Of a stretch of DNA of 6,504 nt, positions 1 through 6,504 are shown piece by piece. The notes beneath the pieces are model-generated. The model was given only the letters and a program-made list of their open reading frames with translations. It was not told where the DNA came from and did not search any database. The position numbers and the translations under genes are program-made. Numbering within the stretch: the stretch's first letter is position 1; every line of letters begins with the position of its first letter. The stretch comes from a virus (lineage: Duplodnaviria > Heunggongvirae > Uroviricota > Caudoviricetes), in the IMG/VR virus record IMGVR_UViG_2529293063_000012, positions 1 through 6,504 of that record, one strand, 5' to 3'.

Positions 1-1
1 C

Positions 2-1090
2 GGTGATGATAGTCCTGAAGCTCGGCGTATCACCCGCCGATGGGGTATAACTGAAGTAGCAGATTTAATTGGTGTAACTCCTCAAGCAATTAGAGATGCT
101 GAAAAGAGCGGGCGTTTACCTGCACCTGACTTTGAAATGAGAGGAAGAATTGAACGTCGTGCTGGTTATACCATAGATCAAATCAACAGTATGCGAGCAG
201 TTTTTGGCAACCCAAACCAACGACCACAAGATAAAAACCCTGTTGTGCTTGCCGTTATGTCACACAAAGGCGGCGTTTATAAAACATCGTCTGCGGTGCA
301 TCAAGCTCAATGGTTAGCATTACAAGGTCATCGTGTTCTTTTGGTTGAAGGTAACGATCCTCAAGGCACGGCCTCTATGTATCACGGTTATGTTCCTGAT
401 TTACATATCCATGCCGAGGATACTTTACTGCCATTTTACTTAGGAGAACGCGATAACGCTGAATATGCTATAAAGCCAACATGTTGGCCTGGGCTAGACA
501 TTATCCCTAGCTGCCTAGCTTTACATCGTATAGAAACAGATCTCATGCAATATCATGCTCAGGGTAAATTGCCTCATCCTCCACACCTTATGCTACGCGC
601 AGCTATTGAATCAGTTTGGGATAACTACGATGTTATCGTTATAGATAGTGCTCCGAACCTCGGTACAGGAACCATTAACGTTGTTTGTGCCGCTGACGTT
701 ATTGTTGTTGCTACACCTGCAGAATTATTTGATTACGCTTCTGTTCTGCAGTTTTTCACAATGCTTCTCGATCTATTGGAAAGCGTTGACCTAGGTGGAT
801 TTGAGCCAACCGTTCGCTTACTTCTGACTAAATATAGTCTCACTACAGGGAATCAATCACGATGGATGGAAGAACAAATAAGAAATACATGGGGATCAAT
901 GGTATTACGTCAGGTTGTACGCGTTACCGATGAAGTAGGTAAAGGCCAGATAAAAATGAGAACAGTATTTGAACAAGCAGCAAACCAACGTTCAACATTG
1001 AATGCATGGAGAAATGCTGTTTCTATATGGGACCCTGTTTGCCGAGAAATTTTTGATGATCTAATAAAACCTCGCTGGGAGAACGAATAA
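2..1090 (+). CDS. sopA: Partition ATPase SopA/ParA (type Ia Walker-type), 5'-partial: reading frame is open from position 2 with no stop, so the true start lies upstream of the window
   Basis: Translation from position 2 gives GDDSPEARRITRRWGITEVADLIGVTPQAIRDAEKSGRLPAPDFEMRGRIERRAGYTIDQ..., which continues into the ORF-track protein. It contains the deviant Walker A box (SHKGGVYKTS) and long stretches that match F-plasmid SopA as I recall it (e.g. VLLVEGNDPQGTASMYHG, KPTCWPGLDIIPSCLALHRIE, DVIVIDSAPNLG). The Met at 137 in the ORF track is internal. Confidence 0.9.
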   Translation, partial: GDDSPEARRITRRWGITEVADLIGVTPQAIRDAEKSGRLPAPDFEMRGRIERRAGYTIDQINSMRAVFGNPNQRPQDKNPVVLAVMSHKGGVYKTSSAVHQAQWLALQGHRVLLVEGNDPQGTASMYHGYVPDLHIHAEDTLLPFYLGERDNAEYAIKPTCWPGLDIIPSCLALHRIETDLMQYHAQGKLPHPPHLMLRAAIESVWDNYDVIVIDSAPNLGTGTINVVCAADVIVVATPAELFDYASVLQFFTMLLDLLESVDLGGFEPTVRLLLTKYSLTTGNQSRWMEEQIRNTWGSMVLRQVVRVTDEVGKGQIKMRTVFEQAANQRSTLNAWRNAVSIWDPVCREIFDDLIKPRWENE

Positions 1091-2055
1091 TGAAACAGCG
1101 CTCTCTTCTGAAAAATGCTCCAGATATTAATCGCATTATGAGTAATAATCATCATGCCCCTGAACATCAGCCCGTATCACCTATGGTTGGTGATTTAAAA
1201 CGTCAACTGAGCTCATTAACCGGTAACAGCATAACTTTGCCAGTATGCGGACGTAATGTTAACTTTAAGTTAGAGACAATTCCCGCAGATAAAGTTGAAA
1301 TGGCAACAATGGTATGGCTAGGTAATGAACGCGATCAAGATTTATTAAATGAATCCTCTCTAGCCGATTTAATCCCATCTTTTCTAACGTCTGGACAACA
1401 AAATCCAGCTTTCGCCAGAAAAGTATCTGGAATCGTTGAAGTCGCTGACGGCTCACGTAGAAGAAAAGCAGCGATATTAACAGGATGTGACTATCGCGTC
1501 TTAATTGGTGATCTCGACGATGAACAGATGCATTGGTTATCCCAAATTGGTAACGATTATAGGCCTATTAGTGCATACGAAAGAGGAAAGAGATACTTAC
1601 GCAAGCTAAATGACTTTGATGGTAACGTTAAAGCATTAGCCGAGGCTGAAAATATAGATAGAAATATTATCACTCGCTGTATCAATACAGCTGGTCTACC
1701 AAAAGATATATTAGCTATCTTCAATCATCCAGGAGAACTGTCAGCTCGTGCTGGAGATTCTTTGTTTAAGGTTTACAAAAAAAACATGGCTGCCATGAGC
1801 AATGCTGCTCATCATCTTCTGGCAATTAAAAAAAACGGCGAGGATTTAGAATCTTCACGGATTATACAAATATTATCTGACTCTGTTCTGGTTGGCGACG
1901 AGGAAAAAACAAAAGACGAGAAAAAATATGGGGAAGGGATCACTGCTAGATATAAAGGTAATTTTGTAACTATAAAAATTGATAGCCGCAAAATATCTAA
2001 AGAAATACTAAGCAGAATTGAGTTGTTACTAGAGGAACAATCTACTGATACTTAA
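1090..2055 (+). CDS. sopB: Partition centromere-binding protein SopB/ParB
   Basis: 321-aa ORF whose ATG overlaps the sopA stop by 1 nt (TAATG at 1088..1092), with GGAG about 9 nt upstream. Motifs match F SopB as I recall it (ITLPVCGR, WLGNERDQDLL, DLIPSFLTSGQQNPAF, VSGIVEVADGSRRRKAA, LSQIGNDYRPISAYERG, IITRCINTAGLPK, FNHPGELSARAGD). Confidence 0.9.
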   Translation: MKQRSLLKNAPDINRIMSNNHHAPEHQPVSPMVGDLKRQLSSLTGNSITLPVCGRNVNFKLETIPADKVEMATMVWLGNERDQDLLNESSLADLIPSFLTSGQQNPAFARKVSGIVEVADGSRRRKAAILTGCDYRVLIGDLDDEQMHWLSQIGNDYRPISAYERGKRYLRKLNDFDGNVKALAEAENIDRNIITRCINTAGLPKDILAIFNHPGELSARAGDSLFKVYKKNMAAMSNAAHHLLAIKKNGEDLESSRIIQILSDSVLVGDEEKTKDEKKYGEGITARYKGNFVTIKIDSRKISKEILSRIELLLEEQSTDT

Positions 2056-2059
2056 GAAG

Positions 2060-2082
2060 TATCCCCTGCATTGCAGGGGATA
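2060..2082. terminator. Perfect palindrome (11-bp arms, 1-nt centre) between convergent sopB and invertase genes; probable bidirectional intrinsic terminator, alternatively a protein-binding site
   Basis: TATCCCCTGCA-T-TGCAGGGGATA read directly at 2060..2082. It lies 5 nt after the sopB stop and about 22 nt from the invertase stop, with a T-rich stretch (TATTGATTTA) following on the + strand. Confidence 0.4.
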
Positions 2083-2104
2083 TTGATTTATGGTTGTACT
2101 CCAG

Positions 2105-2659
2105 TCAATGATTCCCAGCCGGAAACCTGCGGTAAAGCGTGGATAAAGCAACATCGAAGATAATCGCTATCTGTTTACGTGAAACACCATTCACAATAAG
2201 CCTTCCGACCTGTTCCCATTGCTCGGGTGCCAGTTTTGAGCGGCGCCCCCCTATCCTACCGTTAGCCCTTGCCACCGCTAATCCTGCACGCGTTCTTTCA
2301 ATAATATTTTCCCGCTCCATCTCTGCGACCGCACTCAGCATTGTGTAGGCAAAGCGGCCAATTGATGTGCTAATTTTTATTCCTTCTGTAACAGAAATAA
2401 ATTCAATGTTGTTTGATAAAAAATAGTTAAGCAATTCAACAAGATGAATCAGAGAACGCCCCATTCTGTCCAGCTTCCAGACAATAACCGTATCACCCGG
2501 TCGTAACGCTTTTATCAGCTTATCCAGTCCTGGTCGTTTTGACTTCGCGCCAGATATTTTATCTTCAAAAATCCGGTCACATCCTGAACTCCTGAGCGCT
2601 TCCAGTTGTAACTCCAAATTCTGGTCAAAAGTTGACACTCTCGCATAGCCGTATTGCAT
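2105..2659 (-). CDS. Serine-recombinase DNA invertase of the Gin/Cin/Hin/Pin family
   Basis: 184 aa with N-terminal catalytic motif YARVSTFDQ (Ser9), resolvase-domain motifs VWKLDRMGRS and AEMERENIIERT, and a C-terminal HTH (RKQIAIIFDVALSTLYRRFP) closely resembling Gin/Hin. Size and position next to a crossover site fit the family. Confidence 0.9.
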   Translation of the reverse strand: MQYGYARVSTFDQNLELQLEALRSSGCDRIFEDKISGAKSKRPGLDKLIKALRPGDTVIVWKLDRMGRSLIHLVELLNYFLSNNIEFISVTEGIKISTSIGRFAYTMLSAVAEMERENIIERTRAGLAVARANGRIGGRRSKLAPEQWEQVGRLIVNGVSRKQIAIIFDVALSTLYRRFPAGNH

Positions 2660-2694
2660 ACTTTCTAACCTGCAATTGTTGCTGAAAGCGGGAA

Positions 2695-2723
2695 AAAATA
2701 TCGTTCAGACGACACGGAGGCAA
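2695..2723 (-). promoter_or_regulatory. Candidate sigma70 promoter for the invertase gene (-35 TTGCCT, 17-nt spacer, -10 TATTTT on the minus strand), abutting cixL
   Basis: Read on the reverse complement of 2660..2730: TTGCCT-(17 nt)-TATTTT, about 35 nt upstream of the invertase ATG, with AGG..GAAAG before the ATG. The match to consensus is weak (4/6 and 4/6). Confidence 0.25.
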
Positions 2724-2749
2724 TTCTCAAAAACCTCGGTTTGCAGGAA
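2724..2749. repeat. cix/gix-like 26-bp inversion crossover site, left (cixL)
   Basis: TTCTCAAAAACCTCGGTTTGCAGGAA. Its reverse complement matches the site at 5974..5999 at 22 of 26 positions and resembles the Mu gix sequence as I recall it (TTCCTGTAAACCGAGGTTTTGGATAA). It lies between the invertase gene and the Sv cassette. Confidence 0.75.
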
Positions 2750-3898
2750 ACGGTAAATAAGGCTTCTGGCGCATTACAGAAAAACCAGAACGGCGCAGAT
2801 ATTCCCGATAAAAAACTATTCCTGCGTAATATCGGCACAACAAATTCAACAACCATGTCTTTTAGTGGTGGTGCTGGATGGTTCAAACTGGCAACTGTAA
2901 CAATGCCACAAGCCAGTTCCGTGGTTTACATAAGCCTGATTGGTGGCGCAGGGTATAACGTTGGCTCCTCGCATCAAGCAGGCATCTCTGAGCTGGTTCT
3001 GCGTGCCGGAAATGGGAATCCAAAAGGTATTACTGGTGCATTATGGCGACGGACCTCGGTTGGATTTACTCATTTTGCATGGGTGAATACATCCGGTGAT
3101 ACCTATGACATTTATGTAGAAATAGGTAATTACGCCACAGGTGTTAATATTCAGTGGGATTATACCAGTAACGCCAGCGTAACGATTCATACATCACCAA
3201 CTTATACAGCGAATAAACCAACAGGCCTGACAGATGGAACTGTATATGTAATTTACAGTTCGCACATTAAACCGACTGCTGCTGAGGTTGGGGCGTTGTC
3301 ATTATCTGGCGGTCAATTGAATGGTGCACTGGGCATCGGAACATCCAGTGTTCTTGGCGGTAACTCGATTGTTTTGGGGGATAATGATACTGGTTTCAAA
3401 CAGAACGGCGATGGCCTTCTTGATGTTTATGCTAATAGTCAGCATGTATTCCGTTTCCAGAATGGCGTGGCTATTGCTTTAAAAAACATTCAGGCCGGAG
3501 ATGGTAAAAAACTCTCGCTATCAAGCTCCAACAACTCCACAAAGAATGCAAGGTTTAATTTATGGGGTAATTCATCCCGCCCCGTAGTTGCAGAACTTGG
3601 TGATGATTCAGGTTGGCATTTTTATAGTCAAAGAAATACAGATAATTCAGTATTGTTCTCCGTTAACGGTCAGATAAACCCCAACAACTGGAGTAACTTT
3701 GATTCTCGTTATGTGAGAGATGTCCGACTTGGTACACGTGTTGTTCAGACTATGCAAAAAGGCGTGATGTATGAGAAATCAGGTCATGCAATTACGGGGC
3801 TTGGCATTATTGGCGCTGTTGATGGCGATGATCCGGCTGTATTCAGACCAATACAAAAATACATCAATGGCACATGGTATAACGTCGCACAGGTATAA
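2741..3898 (+). CDS. Tail-fibre variable C-terminal cassette Sv; silent in this orientation (no ATG; the TTG at 2741 in the ORF track is probably not a real start)
   Basis: The frame is open back to a TAA at 2666..2668 with no ATG between 2669 and 2740. The N-terminus encodes GLQETVNKA, the same junction peptide as in the expressed fibre (GLQETVNRA). The protein is Gly/Ser/Thr/Asn-rich and its C-terminus (NFDSRYVRDVRLG..., PIQKYINGTWYNV) parallels the Sv' C-terminus. Confidence 0.8.
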   Translation: MQETVNKASGALQKNQNGADIPDKKLFLRNIGTTNSTTMSFSGGAGWFKLATVTMPQASSVVYISLIGGAGYNVGSSHQAGISELVLRAGNGNPKGITGALWRRTSVGFTHFAWVNTSGDTYDIYVEIGNYATGVNIQWDYTSNASVTIHTSPTYTANKPTGLTDGTVYVIYSSHIKPTAAEVGALSLSGGQLNGALGIGTSSVLGGNSIVLGDNDTGFKQNGDGLLDVYANSQHVFRFQNGVAIALKNIQAGDGKKLSLSSSNNSTKNARFNLWGNSSRPVVAELGDDSGWHFYSQRNTDNSVLFSVNGQINPNNWSNFDSRYVRDVRLGTRVVQTMQKGVMYEKSGHAITGLGIIGAVDGDDPAVFRPIQKYINGTWYNVAQV

Positions 3899-3901
3899 TT
3901 T

Positions 3902-4045
3902 ATGCAGCATTTAAAAAATATTACTGCAGGTAATCCCAAAACTATCGAACAGTATCAACTTACAAAAGAATTTGATGTTATCTGGTTATGGTCCGAAGAC
4001 GGAAAAAACTGGTATGAGGAAGTGAAAAACTTTCAGCCAGACACA
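3902..4045 (+). repeat. Internal inverted repeat, arm 1 (5' end of U), ~88% nt identity to the reverse complement of 4848..4991
   Basis: Manual alignment of 3902..4045 against the reverse complement of 4848..4991 gives a 22-nt and a 48-nt perfect block (AATCCCAAAACTATCGAACAGTATCAACTTACAAAAGAATTTGATGTT) plus scattered mismatches. Identity starts exactly at the ATG. Confidence 0.8.
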
Positions 4046-4429
4046 ATAAAGATTGTTTACGATGCAAATAATATTATTGTCGCCATCACCAAAGATGCCT
4101 CCACGCTTAACCCTGAAGGTTATAGCGTCGTTGAGGTTCCAGATATTACAGCCAACCGCCGCGCTGATGATTCCGGTAAGTGGATGTTTAGGGACGGAGC
4201 TGTGGTTAAACGGATTTATACGGCAGACGAGCAACAACAACAGGCCGAATCACAAAAGGCCGCGTTGCTTTCTGAAGCTGAAAGCGTTATTCAGCCACTG
4301 GAACGCGCTGTCAGGCTGAATATGGCGACGGATGAGGAGCGTACACGACTGGAGTCATGGGAACGCTACAGCGTTCTGGTCAACCGTGTGGATACAGCAA
4401 AGCCCGAATGGCCACAAAAGCCTGAATAA
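3902..4429 (+). CDS. Tail-fibre assembly chaperone (U/Tfa family) cognate to Sv
   Basis: 175 aa starting 4 nt after the Sv stop (TAATTTATG). The N-terminal ~45 aa are nearly identical to the minus-strand paralogue ([26 protein letters not shown].WLWSE.GKNWYEE). Position directly downstream of a fibre tip is typical for Mu U and P2 G. Confidence 0.85.
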
Positions 4430-4434
4430 AAATT

Positions 4435-4454
4435 AAGGCCCGCTATCGGGCCTT
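4435..4454. terminator. Bidirectional rho-independent terminator hairpin between convergent U and U'
   Basis: AAGGCCCG-CTAT-CGGGCCTT, a GC-rich 8-bp stem with a 4-nt loop, sits in the 28-bp gap between the U stop (4427..4429) and the U' stop (4458..4460). Confidence 0.6.
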
Positions 4455-4457
4455 GTC

Positions 4458-4991
4458 TCATTCAGGTTGTTCGGGAAATATTACTGGCAGGCTGGAGGTG
4501 TCTGTAGATTCGACTTTCTGCGCATAGAGCATCCACTCGGTTAATTTTTGTTTATTCTCGTCGGAAATGATGCCCAGCCGTAGCTGTGAGTCCCATAGCT
4601 GTGTTTTATCCCTGACGAGCTGTAGCAGGCTTTGCTTTTCATTTTCCGCTTGTTGCCTCTGCTCTTCCTCGGTATAAGTTCGCTTTATCACTACGCCATC
4701 TTTGAACATCCAGTTGCCGGAAATATCAGCGCGTCGGTTTGCCGTAATATTGGGTAACTCAACCACACTCATTCCCTCTGGATTAATCAGGGATACATCT
4801 TTCTCAATACAGCAAATAACACCCTCCTGGTTATATGCCACTTTTAACGTGTCAGGCTGGAAATTTTTCTGTTCCTCATACCAGTTCTTACCTTCTTCCG
4901 ACCATAACCAGACAACATCAAATTCTTTTGTAAGTTGATACTGTTCGATAGTTTTGGGATTTCCTGCTTTAATATTTTTTAAATGCTGCAT
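4458..4991 (-). CDS. Tail-fibre assembly chaperone (U'/Tfa family) cognate to Sv'; start placed at the ATG at 4991 (the ORF track extends to a GTG at 5000)
   Basis: The protein from MQHLKNIKAGNPK... parallels U. The ATG at 4991..4989 follows the Sv' stop (4995..4993) in a TAATATG arrangement, with AGGA about 10 nt upstream. The C-terminal half diverges from U. Confidence 0.85.
   Translation of the reverse strand: MQHLKNIKAGNPKTIEQYQLTKEFDVVWLWSEEGKNWYEEQKNFQPDTLKVAYNQEGVICCIEKDVSLINPEGMSVVELPNITANRRADISGNWMFKDGVVIKRTYTEEEQRQQAENEKQSLLQLVRDKTQLWDSQLRLGIISDENKQKLTEWMLYAQKVESTDTSSLPVIFPEQPE
4848..4991 (-). repeat. Internal inverted repeat, arm 2 (5' end of U')
   Basis: Reverse complement aligns to 3902..4045 at ~88% identity (see arm 1). 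Confidence 0.8.
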
Positions 4992-4992
4992 A

Positions 4993-6504
4993 TTAAGCAC
5001 GTCCTACATTGTACCAATGACCATTAATATATTTCTGAACAGGAGCGTAGACAGGCCATTCTCTCGAATCATCAAAGTTGCCACCTGTCAGAACGTATCC
5101 GGCTGGAACCGTTCCGCCATCACCACCCCAGACAATCCCACTCTGGTTAGCACCCATGCGAACGTCACGAACATAGCGTGAGTCAAAATTACCATAATTG
5201 CCGGGAATAATTTGCGAGCCGCAAAGCCAATTCCCGTTATTATCCATGTACGCCTGACCATCGGTGCCATTGTCTGTCCTTGAGTTATTAATCATGTAGA
5301 TGCCAAATTCCCTATTCCCCAGTCCACCAATCATAAATTTGCGGTCAGCATGGTCCTGACGTAGCAATGCCTGGGCGCTATCAGTTTTAACTATATTTCT
5401 CCCAAAGATAGCGTTGTTATCGCGCATCTGAATCCACATACCATTACTGCTGTTAATAGCAAAACGGTTTGCAAATATATCCCCTGTAACATCAAGACCA
5501 TGCCCCATGCTTATCCGACCAGTTCTAAGATTAAGCGTAAAGGGGCGTAGTGGCCCTATATCACCATTTTCTCCCTCATTCTCTCGTGTAGGGATGATAT
5601 GCAGGCATTCTTCAGAACGACGAAAAATAGCACCAAAAGATGAATTAAATATCCTCAGTGCATTGACTGTCGATATTTTTACTTCACTGCTGAAAAGGGC
5701 TTTAACAAGGACAGACAAAGCATCCCATTTAAGATTCATCAGGTCTTTTGTTGTGGTGCTCTGGCGGCTTCTCCATTTGAAATATTCATTGCCGTTGTCG
5801 CCTGTTTCAAACCACATGTATGAATCAGTGTCACCATCAGCATCATTTTTAAATCCAATCTTCGCCCAGTCAGTATTTCGAATCCAGGCAAGGATAGAGT
5901 CGTTTTCAAAAGTAAGCCCACCGGACAAGGTATCGCCATTCTTTTGCACGGCGTTCCTGGCCCTGTTTACCGTTTCCTGTAAACCGAGGTATTCGATAAC
6001 GGCAGCAACGGTCGATTTCGCAAGAATATCCCGCCCGACTTTTGTCAGGGTTGCCAGGCTGGCGACATCATTCCCCGTAAAATACGGAAACCTGTCTGCC
6101 GCAGTAGCAAGCCCGGCCAGCGCCGTCAGGGTGGCATCTTTCGGTTGCTTACCCGCAAGCGCGTTAGTCATGGTGGTCGCAAAATTCGGGTCGTTGCCCA
6201 GCGCCGCCGCTAACTCGTTCAGCGTATTCAGTGCGTCAGGCGACGAGTCTACAAGGGCGGCAATCGCGGCCATCACATAAGCCGTACTTGCGATCTGAGT
6301 ATTATTAGTACCTTTTGGCGCAGTTGGCGTTGTTGGCGTTCCGGTCAGTGCAGGACTATTTAAGGGCGCTTTCTTGTTCGTTTCATCCATTACCGCCTTA
6401 ACCGCTTTTGGTGTCGCAGCCAGCGTTTCAGACGGGCTGTTAGTGGCGCTACTGAGCTGAACTATCCCTTTTCGTGCCGTCGTTGCGTCCTGAGCGGTAT
6501 ATTT
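4993..6504 (-). CDS. Tail fibre protein: constant N-terminal part (Sc, entering from the right window edge, 5'-partial) fused in frame to the variable tip Sv' (about 5973..4993); this is the expressed fibre in this orientation
   Basis: The minus-strand frame is open from 6504 through the ATG at 6390 with no stop (upstream peptide KYTAQDATTARKGIVQLSSATNSPSETLAATPKAVKAV-MDETNKK...). This region and PDALNTLNELAAALGNDP are typical of the conserved tail-fibre domain in Mu S / P2 H-like fibres. The crossover site lies inside the coding sequence at the GLQETVN junction. The C-terminus (NFDSRYVRDVRMG..., PVQKYINGHWYNV) parallels Sv. Confidence 0.85.
   Translation of the reverse strand, partial: KYTAQDATTARKGIVQLSSATNSPSETLAATPKAVKAVMDETNKKAPLNSPALTGTPTTPTAPKGTNNTQIASTAYVMAAIAALVDSSPDALNTLNELAAALGNDPNFATTMTNALAGKQPKDATLTALAGLATAADRFPYFTGNDVASLATLTKVGRDILAKSTVAAVIEYLGLQETVNRARNAVQKNGDTLSGGLTFENDSILAWIRNTDWAKIGFKNDADGDTDSYMWFETGDNGNEYFKWRSRQSTTTKDLMNLKWDALSVLVKALFSSEVKISTVNALRIFNSSFGAIFRRSEECLHIIPTRENEGENGDIGPLRPFTLNLRTGRISMGHGLDVTGDIFANRFAINSSNGMWIQMRDNNAIFGRNIVKTDSAQALLRQDHADRKFMIGGLGNREFGIYMINNSRTDNGTDGQAYMDNNGNWLCGSQIIPGNYGNFDSRYVRDVRMGANQSGIVWGGDGGTVPAGYVLTGGNFDDSREWPVYAPVQKYINGHWYNVGRA
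5974..5999. repeat. cix/gix-like 26-bp inversion crossover site, right (cixR), embedded in the tail-fibre coding sequence
   Basis: TTCCTGTAAACCGAGGTATTCGATAA matches the reverse complement of 2724..2749 at 22 of 26 positions, with homology extending about 8 nt further into the segment (TTTACCGT). It is very close to the Mu gix sequence as I recall it. Confidence 0.75.

Follow-up and report, generated by a model that had tools for sequence, protein, structure and literature searches.

How do F-like plasmid partition genes come to stand directly beside a phage DNA invertase and an invertible tail-fibre cassette? The question is raised by a 6,504-bp stretch of tailed-phage DNA (IMG/VR record IMGVR_UViG_2529293063_000012, positions 1–6,504; hereafter "the window"), which is identical in sequence to the whole contig APZB01000145.1 of assembly GCA_000358735.1. 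An initial annotation, made from the letters alone, had placed an F-like SopAB system next to a Mu/P1-type invertase and tail-fibre cassette, and every one of these parts was found at about the place assigned to it. In all likelihood, the window represents the end of an N15-like telomere phage-plasmid, in which the sopAB genes usual for such elements adjoin a Mu-type invertible fibre switch. The layout was derived from the listing of open reading frames (ORFs) and from hidden Markov model scans of the window with Pfam and NCBIfam, and chance matches were excluded by the domain E-values. No record in three BLAST collections reached a coverage of at least 80% of the window, and N15-like identity was assessed on near-identical relatives and not on the window's own molecule. 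These relatives include the complete plasmid pZ1323HEC0355-3 (NZ_CP148365.1; locus L001) and pAH01-1 (NZ_CP055252.1; locus L005), and the close ones are all from Escherichia.

Partition genes and N15-like identity

The first gene, sopA (2–1090, plus strand), encodes a type Ia ParA ATPase, as indicated by the NF010259 equivalog (E = 7e-209, 693.5 bits, profile positions 27–387 of 388) and the AAA_31 and CbiA domains, with KGGVYKTS as the deviant Walker A motif. The score falls below the 725-bit cutoff of NF010259 for the sole reason that 26 N-terminal codons lie past the contig end; the relatives carry a full-length SopA of 388 residues. The second gene, sopB (1090–2055, plus strand), is intact and encodes a ParB-type centromere-binding protein of 321 residues, identified by NF010252 (407 bits, cutoff 274) and the Pfam domain SoPB_HTH (E = 7e-25). 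Its start codon overlaps the sopA stop codon at 1090, within the same operon, and the best solved relative of its product is the F SopB structure 3MKY (E = 7e-38). The long-class ParA and the downstream ParB with a SopB HTH are two of the features that characterise type Ia ParABS systems of the F/N15 Sop subgroup, and F sopABC belongs to the same partition family with the same operon structure. At the amino-acid level, SopA is 94% identical to its N15 counterpart and 75% to that of F, and SopB 72% and 49.5%, respectively; the published identity between the N15 and F SopB proteins is 49% (PMC7205306). Judged by these comparisons of sequence, the partition module is of the N15 type.

The centromere is arranged differently in the two reference systems. 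In F, tandem repeats carrying TGGGACCACGGTCCCA lie directly downstream of sopB, nine of them by an exact pattern scan, whereas no F-type sopC array follows sopB in the window. The family of the window element has dispersed TGCGACCNNGGTCGCA sites instead of such an array, and the N15 centromere was described as four dispersed palindromes, GTGCGACCNNGGTCGCAC (PMC7205306, Table 4). Perfect palindromes of the N15 type numbered three in N15, four in pZ1323HEC0355-3 and none in the window, in which F-type and N15-type sites were both absent, the latter even with three mismatches allowed. All of these palindromes sit outside the region homologous to the window, so that the N15-style dispersed arrangement was found for the element, through pZ1323HEC0355-3, and not inside the window. 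The sopA–sopB pair is predicted to function as a type Ia ParAB system that would segregate the plasmid prophage, with SopB binding to N15-type palindromes scattered elsewhere in the genome.

Window positions 1–2100 are 99% identical to non-mobilizable plasmids of E. coli and E. albertii, mostly of about 46–50 kb, and in pAH01-1, the only such plasmid whose flank was examined, a protelomerase gene precedes sopA. Positions 1–2732 are 98.2% identical to pZ1323HEC0355-3, which reads protelomerase, CyRepA1-type RepA, CB-like repressor, Cro, Q and lysis genes, followed by lambda-like terminase, head and tail genes, J, lom, stf, tfa, tfa', invertase, sopB and sopA. TelN, RepA, CB, TerL, portal, MCP and SopA of this plasmid are 76–93% identical to those of N15 (76–90% when SopA is set aside), and DNA homology to N15 covers 54% of its length. 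Look-ups with the exact SopB and invertase proteins returned many draft and metagenome contigs ordered sopA, sopB, invertase and fibre cassette, and longer contigs with an identical SopB or invertase extend into a TelK-family protelomerase and a 1331-residue RepA. Loci L006, L014, L016, L020 and L021 run on into the TelK-family protelomerase, and pZ1323HEC0355-3 and the 46-kb contigs L014 and L018 each combine an N15-type RepA with head and tail genes of the lambda-like type. The replication and structural genes that the initial annotation had named as a check are borne by the relatives (protelomerase, RepA and lambda-like genes), and neither a protelomerase nor a replication gene is present in the window.

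The record of N15 (Ravinvirus N15, a linear plasmid-prophage of E. coli) explains the arrangement. It reads tail fibre gp25, UmuD-like gp26, terminator, sopB, sopA, telRL and protelomerase. It shares with the window element the F-like sopA–sopB pair, which closes the left arm and has the late operon, with its tail-fibre end, on one side and telRL/protelomerase on the other; also shared are the terminator hairpin downstream of sopB and the dispersed centromere palindromes without an adjacent sopC array. Because N15 shows the same layout at this end, partition genes beside tail-fibre genes represent the normal N15-family layout and not an anomaly. The initial annotation, which had taken the adjacency for the signature of a phage-plasmid, was right about the kind of element but had missed the N15 match, and with it the fact that the adjacency is ordinary in this family. 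SopA, SopB and protelomerase are regarded as hallmark genes of telomere phages (PMC12042878), and in N15-like elements from clinical Escherichia, Shigella and Salmonella the layout is conserved, with variation mostly in the tail genes (bioRxiv 10.1101/2025.09.12.675607). N15 itself differs in that the gp25 fibre and the UmuD-like gp26 adjoin sopB, without invertase or invertible segment; in the window, the place of gp25 and gp26 is taken by a lambda Stf-type fibre that has alternative C-termini. Between N15 and the relative of the pZ1323HEC0355-3 type, J shows only 34% identity, and no similarity of the fibre to gp25 was detected.

The ends of several contigs are consistent with a linear molecule. 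L010, which is 99.3% identical over the entire window, and L011 (GCA_000356365.2, APXB01000010.1), which is 99.98% identical over 5,990 bp, both start, 466 bp upstream of sopA, with ATTATACGCGCGTATAATGG, which forms the core of the telRL palindrome of N15. Short-read contigs that end at the palindrome centre, as these do, should be expected of a hairpin-ended linear plasmid. L015 (GCA_013363225.1, WUUG01000004.1), which encodes an identical invertase, contains at 8325–14876 a 6.58-kb inverted duplication of 99% identity, centred exactly on the N15-type palindrome CCCCATTATACGCGCGTATAATGGGG. This fold-back looks like assembly read-through around the hairpin end of a linear prophage. Among 5,426 complete E. 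coli genomes, the region of the sopB–invertase junction had 47 matches, all on plasmids and none on a chromosome. As had been proposed initially, the element is an extrachromosomal prophage and a mosaic.

Two side observations concern these assemblies. Three independent short-read contigs (L009, L010 and L011) start at the very same base inside the telomere palindrome, and such a common start would provide a simple signature for hairpin-ended replicons in draft assemblies. Within the L015 duplication, the gene calls are broken up in the manner typical of long-read errors.

Invertase, crossover sites and the invertible fibre segment

The gene at 2105–2659 (minus strand) encodes a serine DNA invertase of the Gin/Cin/Pin family with 184 residues, which comprises Resolvase (E = 3e-45) and HTH_7 domains, with Ser9 in the motif YARVSTFDQ. 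Among solved structures, Gin (3UJ3) is the closest and aligned end to end (E = 2e-62). Sequence identity is 54% with Gin, 57% with Cin, 60% with PinE and 94% with the invertase of the ATCC 25922 plasmid; Gin, Cin and PinE are mutually 75–82% identical. By these values, the window enzyme is a divergent member of the family. The gene lies just beyond the invertible segment, with transcription directed away from the segment, as for gin.

A 40-nucleotide inverted repeat (2724–2763/5960–5999) brackets the tail-fibre cassette and contains two 26-bp crossover sites. The left site (2724–2749, plus strand) reads TTCTCAAAAACC-TC-GGTTTGCAGGAA, with the core at 2736–2737, and the right site (5974–5999) reads TTATCGAATACC-TC-GGTTTACAGGAA on the minus strand, with the core at 5986–5987. 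They are inverted with respect to each other, agree at 20 of 26 positions and share the TC core. The inverted repeats annotated in D108, TTATC(C/T)AAAAC(G/C)-TC-GGTTTACAGGAA, match them closely, down to the TC core and to ACGGTAAA, by which the sites are extended inwards. The start codon of the invertase lies 64 bp outside the left site. In the interval between them, a weak TTGCCT-N17-TATTTT was noticed by eye; a sigma-70 promoter scan of the window returned fewer matches than shuffled sequence, none of them convincing for the invertase. In the P1 record, a Fis-dependent enhancer is placed at nucleotides 19–90 of cin, and the equivalent stretch of the window invertase is 61–64% identical to cin and gin, with a G-N13-C site at nucleotides 71–85 whose position is conserved in all three genes. 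Inversion may likewise depend on Fis.

The 3.25-kb segment between these gix-like sites carries two alternative fibre C-termini, each with its own chaperone. Outside the segment, Sc (5986–6504, minus strand) is the constant part of a lambda Stf-type side tail fibre, recognised by a Phage_fiber_2 repeat, and it continues without interruption into Sv (4993–5985, minus strand), the variable C-terminal part currently fused to it, which contains Gp34_trimer. Together they form an ORF (6504–4993, minus strand) that is open to the contig end, beyond which the N-terminal part of Sc lies; in relatives, the fibres have 945–1057 residues with the Stf N-terminal domain phage_tail_N and directly follow J and lom. 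The chaperone of the expressed orientation, U (4458–4991, minus strand), has 177 residues from its ATG, a length also called in the source record, and matches Caudo_TAP (E = 9e-36). On the opposite strand, Sv' (2738–3898, plus) is the silent alternative C-terminal part, whose ORF would come in frame with Sc after inversion, and U' (3902–4429, plus; Caudo_TAP E = 3e-37) is the assembly chaperone paired with it. The gene layout thus gives Sc-Sv and U as expressed and Sv'-U' as silent in the window. Between the convergent U' and U, a GC-rich hairpin at 4435–4454, detected by a scan for terminator-like elements, is probably a bidirectional terminator; terminators are annotated at the same place in D108, between U and U'.

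Both crossover sites are in the frame CTC GGT TT(G/A) CAG, and the predicted fusion of Sc to Sv' after inversion is also in frame (...AVIEYL|GLQETVNKASG). The segment thus has all the elements of a Mu G or P1 C cassette: an external Sc and two opposed C-termini with chaperones, in frame in both orientations. Mechanistically, the Gin-family invertase would recombine the two inverted TC-core sites and flip the segment, by which Sc would read in frame into Sv in one orientation, with U as chaperone, and into Sv' in the other, with U'. The alternative C-termini should switch receptor specificity, and with it host range.

Inversion is directly visible in public assemblies. L009 and L010, two runs of one series, have identical flanks around a 3,264-bp segment that is reverse-complemented between them at 99.9% identity, with the breakpoints falling within the crossover repeats; compared with L009, the window has the segment in the opposite orientation, at 98.5% identity. 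In L011, the last 157 bp (6503–6659) are the reverse complement of window positions 2607–2763, so that past the right crossover site the contig shows the junction to the invertase side expected for the opposite orientation. Because of this contig end, the L011 culture probably held both orientations mixed. Inversion really occurs, and the same element is found in both orientations. Of note, the Sv and Sv' cassettes vary widely among the N15-like relatives of the window.

The chaperones and fibre tips relate to well-studied switches. U' is 95% identical to U of D108/Mu and 94% to U of P1; U is 88% identical to U' of D108/Mu; the last 60 residues of Sv' are 95% identical to the S tip of Mu/D108; and Sv shares 66–69% identity with the variable parts of S in D108 and P1. 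The G segment of Mu/D108 has the same type of 26-bp site with a TC core, an external invertase likewise transcribed away, and the same order (Sc/Sv-U, U'-Sv'), with chaperones 88–95% identical. Mu differs as a transposable myovirus, whereas the window element, a plasmid-prophage of siphovirus type, has partition genes and an Stf-type constant fibre part. The C segment and Cin of P1, P7 and D6 likewise belong to phage-plasmids with an invertible S/U segment and a serine invertase, and their U proteins are 86–94% identical; in P1, however, cin overlaps cixL and is transcribed in the direction of the segment. P1 is circular and has its own ParAB–parS system. The P segment of e14 of E. coli K-12 is likewise lambdoid, with an invertible stf/tfa pair and the adjacent invertase PinE, but it is chromosomal, defective and devoid of partition genes. 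A P1-, Mu- or D6-type identity of the window was rejected, as only the chaperone/fibre-tip region (about 3695–4996) matches those phages, at 85–91%; the earlier statement that the element is neither Mu nor P1 holds.

Some further observations complete the description of the window. The pairing of fibre and chaperone is mosaic: Sv' combines a Mu S-type tip with a chaperone of the Mu U type (U'), and Sv combines a Mu S-like body (66%) and a divergent tip (about 38–40% identical to either Mu tip) with a chaperone of the Mu U' type (U). An ORF of 257 codons at 5507–6280 (plus strand), which runs antisense to the tail-fibre gene and lacks independent support, is most probably spurious. Rfam and tRNA scans of the window returned no matches.

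The sopB–invertase junction and the origin of the cassette

The convergent sopB and invertase genes are separated by a spacer of 49 bp (2056–2104), in agreement with the distance of about 50 bp given in the initial annotation. Most of it is occupied by a hairpin with a 12-bp stem (2058–2084), which was matched by the scan for terminator-like elements (–20.8 kcal/mol, z = –3.97) and is probably a bidirectional terminator. In N15, a terminator stem-loop is annotated at the equivalent position just downstream of sopB (22085–22113). A role as centromere or SopB site was considered and rejected, because the hairpin occurs as a single copy in pZ1323HEC0355-3 and the N15 terminator occupies the same place; the real N15-type palindromes lie elsewhere. 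The hairpin would separate the convergent sop and invertase transcripts.

The remainder of the spacer holds the point at which the two parts of the element meet. A remnant of the 3' end of tfa, consisting of the stop codon and two codons (TTATGGTTG; 2089–2097, minus strand), was recognised by homology to N15-like plasmids in which tfa adjoins sopB. This homology, at about 97–99% identity, stops at about 2097–2100, and homology to the invertase module of the ATCC 25922 type begins at 2098. The recombination breakpoint is thus at 2098–2100, directly after the tfa remnant, and splits the window into two parts of different affinity. The two homology tracts overlap by 3 bp only, and therefore the junction is suggested to have been made by illegitimate or microhomology-mediated recombination.

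The exact 40-mer spanning the junction was found in 13 fetched loci besides the window's own contig. These come from different samples and include a complete plasmid and a long-read assembly. The 40-mer also had one match among JGI metagenome contigs, and none in GTDB species-representative genomes or in IMG/VR. Its identity across the loci suggests that the junction had a single origin. The junction as such occurs in one of 72,556 PLSDB plasmids and one of 5,426 complete E. coli genomes, in both cases pZ1323HEC0355-3. This complete RefSeq plasmid has the same architecture and the same sopB–hairpin–invertase junction, with all genes annotated, and differs in its invertase allele and in its Sv and Sv' cassettes; the plasmid is otherwise uncharacterised. 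The suspicion that the gene order was under-described is thereby borne out in part: a literature search found no paper on an invertase or invertible tail fibre in N15-like or protelomerase phages, but the junction does stand annotated in this record.

The DNA from 2098 onwards is about 90% identical to a module from another family of phage-plasmids, represented by the 48.5-kb plasmid of ATCC 25922 and Yersinia phage vB_YpM_44. These are circular and of myovirus type, and in them the module follows P2-like baseplate genes and is itself followed by repA and not by sopB. On the N15-like side, pAH01-1, which has no invertase, reads stf, macro-domain gene, tfa, hairpin and sopB, and other N15-like relatives likewise have a tail-fibre-assembly gene directly adjoining sopB. 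Most likely, the invertase–fibre cassette took the place of the tfa end in an ancestral tail-fibre region of the N15-like kind. By sequence, the cassette is common to linear N15-like elements and an unrelated circular phage-plasmid family. As a separate observation on pAH01-1, the macro-domain protein gene between stf and tfa (L005, 6701–7591) is an unusual passenger in a tail-fibre operon.

Two invertase alleles with 94–95% protein identity are found in the N15-like background (window, 2105–2659; L001, 74–628; L003, 6008–6562). The enzyme of pZ1323HEC0355-3 is 99.5% identical to the ATCC 25922-type allele and 94.6% to that of the window. With two alleles present, one of them nearly identical to the ATCC 25922 type, the cassette may have been exchanged repeatedly between these families. 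Whether all this amounts to an undescribed sub-lineage of N15-like telomere phages, with a captured Mu-type host-range switch, a divergent invertase and repeated transfer of the cassette, is a proposal for which we see the chances as evenly balanced.

Competing explanations and significance

The origin of the right-hand part raises the alternative that the whole window, including its partition genes, is a fragment of a circular myovirus-type phage-plasmid like the ATCC 25922 plasmid or vB_YpM_44. It is in this family that the best DNA matches of 2098–6504 among complete records are found, at about 90%, and its invertase protein is 94% identical to that of the window. However, the homology starts only at 2098, and positions 1–2100 are 99% identical to protelomerase-bearing plasmids; in the circular family, the gene after the invertase is the initiator repA, and the fibre follows P2-like baseplate genes. 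The exact window allele of the invertase was moreover found in protelomerase-bearing contigs, and we consider such an origin very improbable. Equally slight is the probability that a defective prophage in the chromosome, or a conjugative plasmid of the F-like kind, acquired a fragment with an invertible fibre; the sop genes would then be inactive or those of an ordinary plasmid. Chromosomal prophages commonly carry invertible fibre cassettes, e14 with PinE being an example, and of the 3,837 matches that the window has in complete E. coli genomes 3,322 lie on chromosomes, but every one of these comes through the fibre/chaperone part, and the region across the sopB–invertase junction is confined to the 47 plasmid matches. 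The matching plasmids are nearly all typed as non-mobilizable, with about 46–49 kb, SopA is much closer to N15 than to F, sopB is intact, and sopA is cut by the contig end only. The inactivated chromosomal copy that the initial annotation had envisaged as the contrary case was not encountered, and its other contrary case, a junction already annotated in a well-characterised element, applies in part, through the annotated but uncharacterised pZ1323HEC0355-3.

An assembly chimera, in which a plasmid and a prophage contig were joined through a short repeat, would also produce such a junction. The window is a short draft contig with both ends inside genes, and assemblies of these elements do fold back at inverted repeats, for example at the right end of L011. 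Against this, the exact junction 40-mer recurs in the 13 other loci, the complete plasmid and long-read assembly among them, and in the metagenome contig, which makes the likelihood of a chimera negligible. Several points nonetheless weigh against an N15-like telomere phage-plasmid with an invertible fibre. Protelomerase, telomere, replication gene and centromere site are all missing from the window, so that N15-like identity rests on the relatives, and sopA is truncated at its 5' end, with the first 26 codons missing. The invertase is only 54–60% identical to the studied Gin, Cin and PinE enzymes, and no strict Fis motif was found in the stretch of its gene equivalent to the cin enhancer, nor in cin or gin. 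Partition, virion production and a change of host range are predictions from the genes. We nevertheless retain the N15-like assignment at the strength given above.

The element is an ordinary mosaic member of the well-characterised N15-like kind. The sole feature that goes beyond N15 and the searchable papers is the Gin-type invertible fibre switch, which is itself a classical mechanism, and the finding raises no new question. It does bear on annotation: short contigs with sopAB, an invertase and tail-fibre genes in Escherichia and Shigella drafts should be called N15-like telomere phage-plasmids, and are neither F-like plasmids nor fragments of Mu or P1. Among the parts of phage-plasmids, tail-fibre modules are known to be exchanged most, and the present case fits this pattern. 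The biological point is modest, namely that an active invertible fibre switch, shared with other phage families, is present in some N15-like phages, and the invertible fibre would give such plasmids a built-in means to alternate host range.

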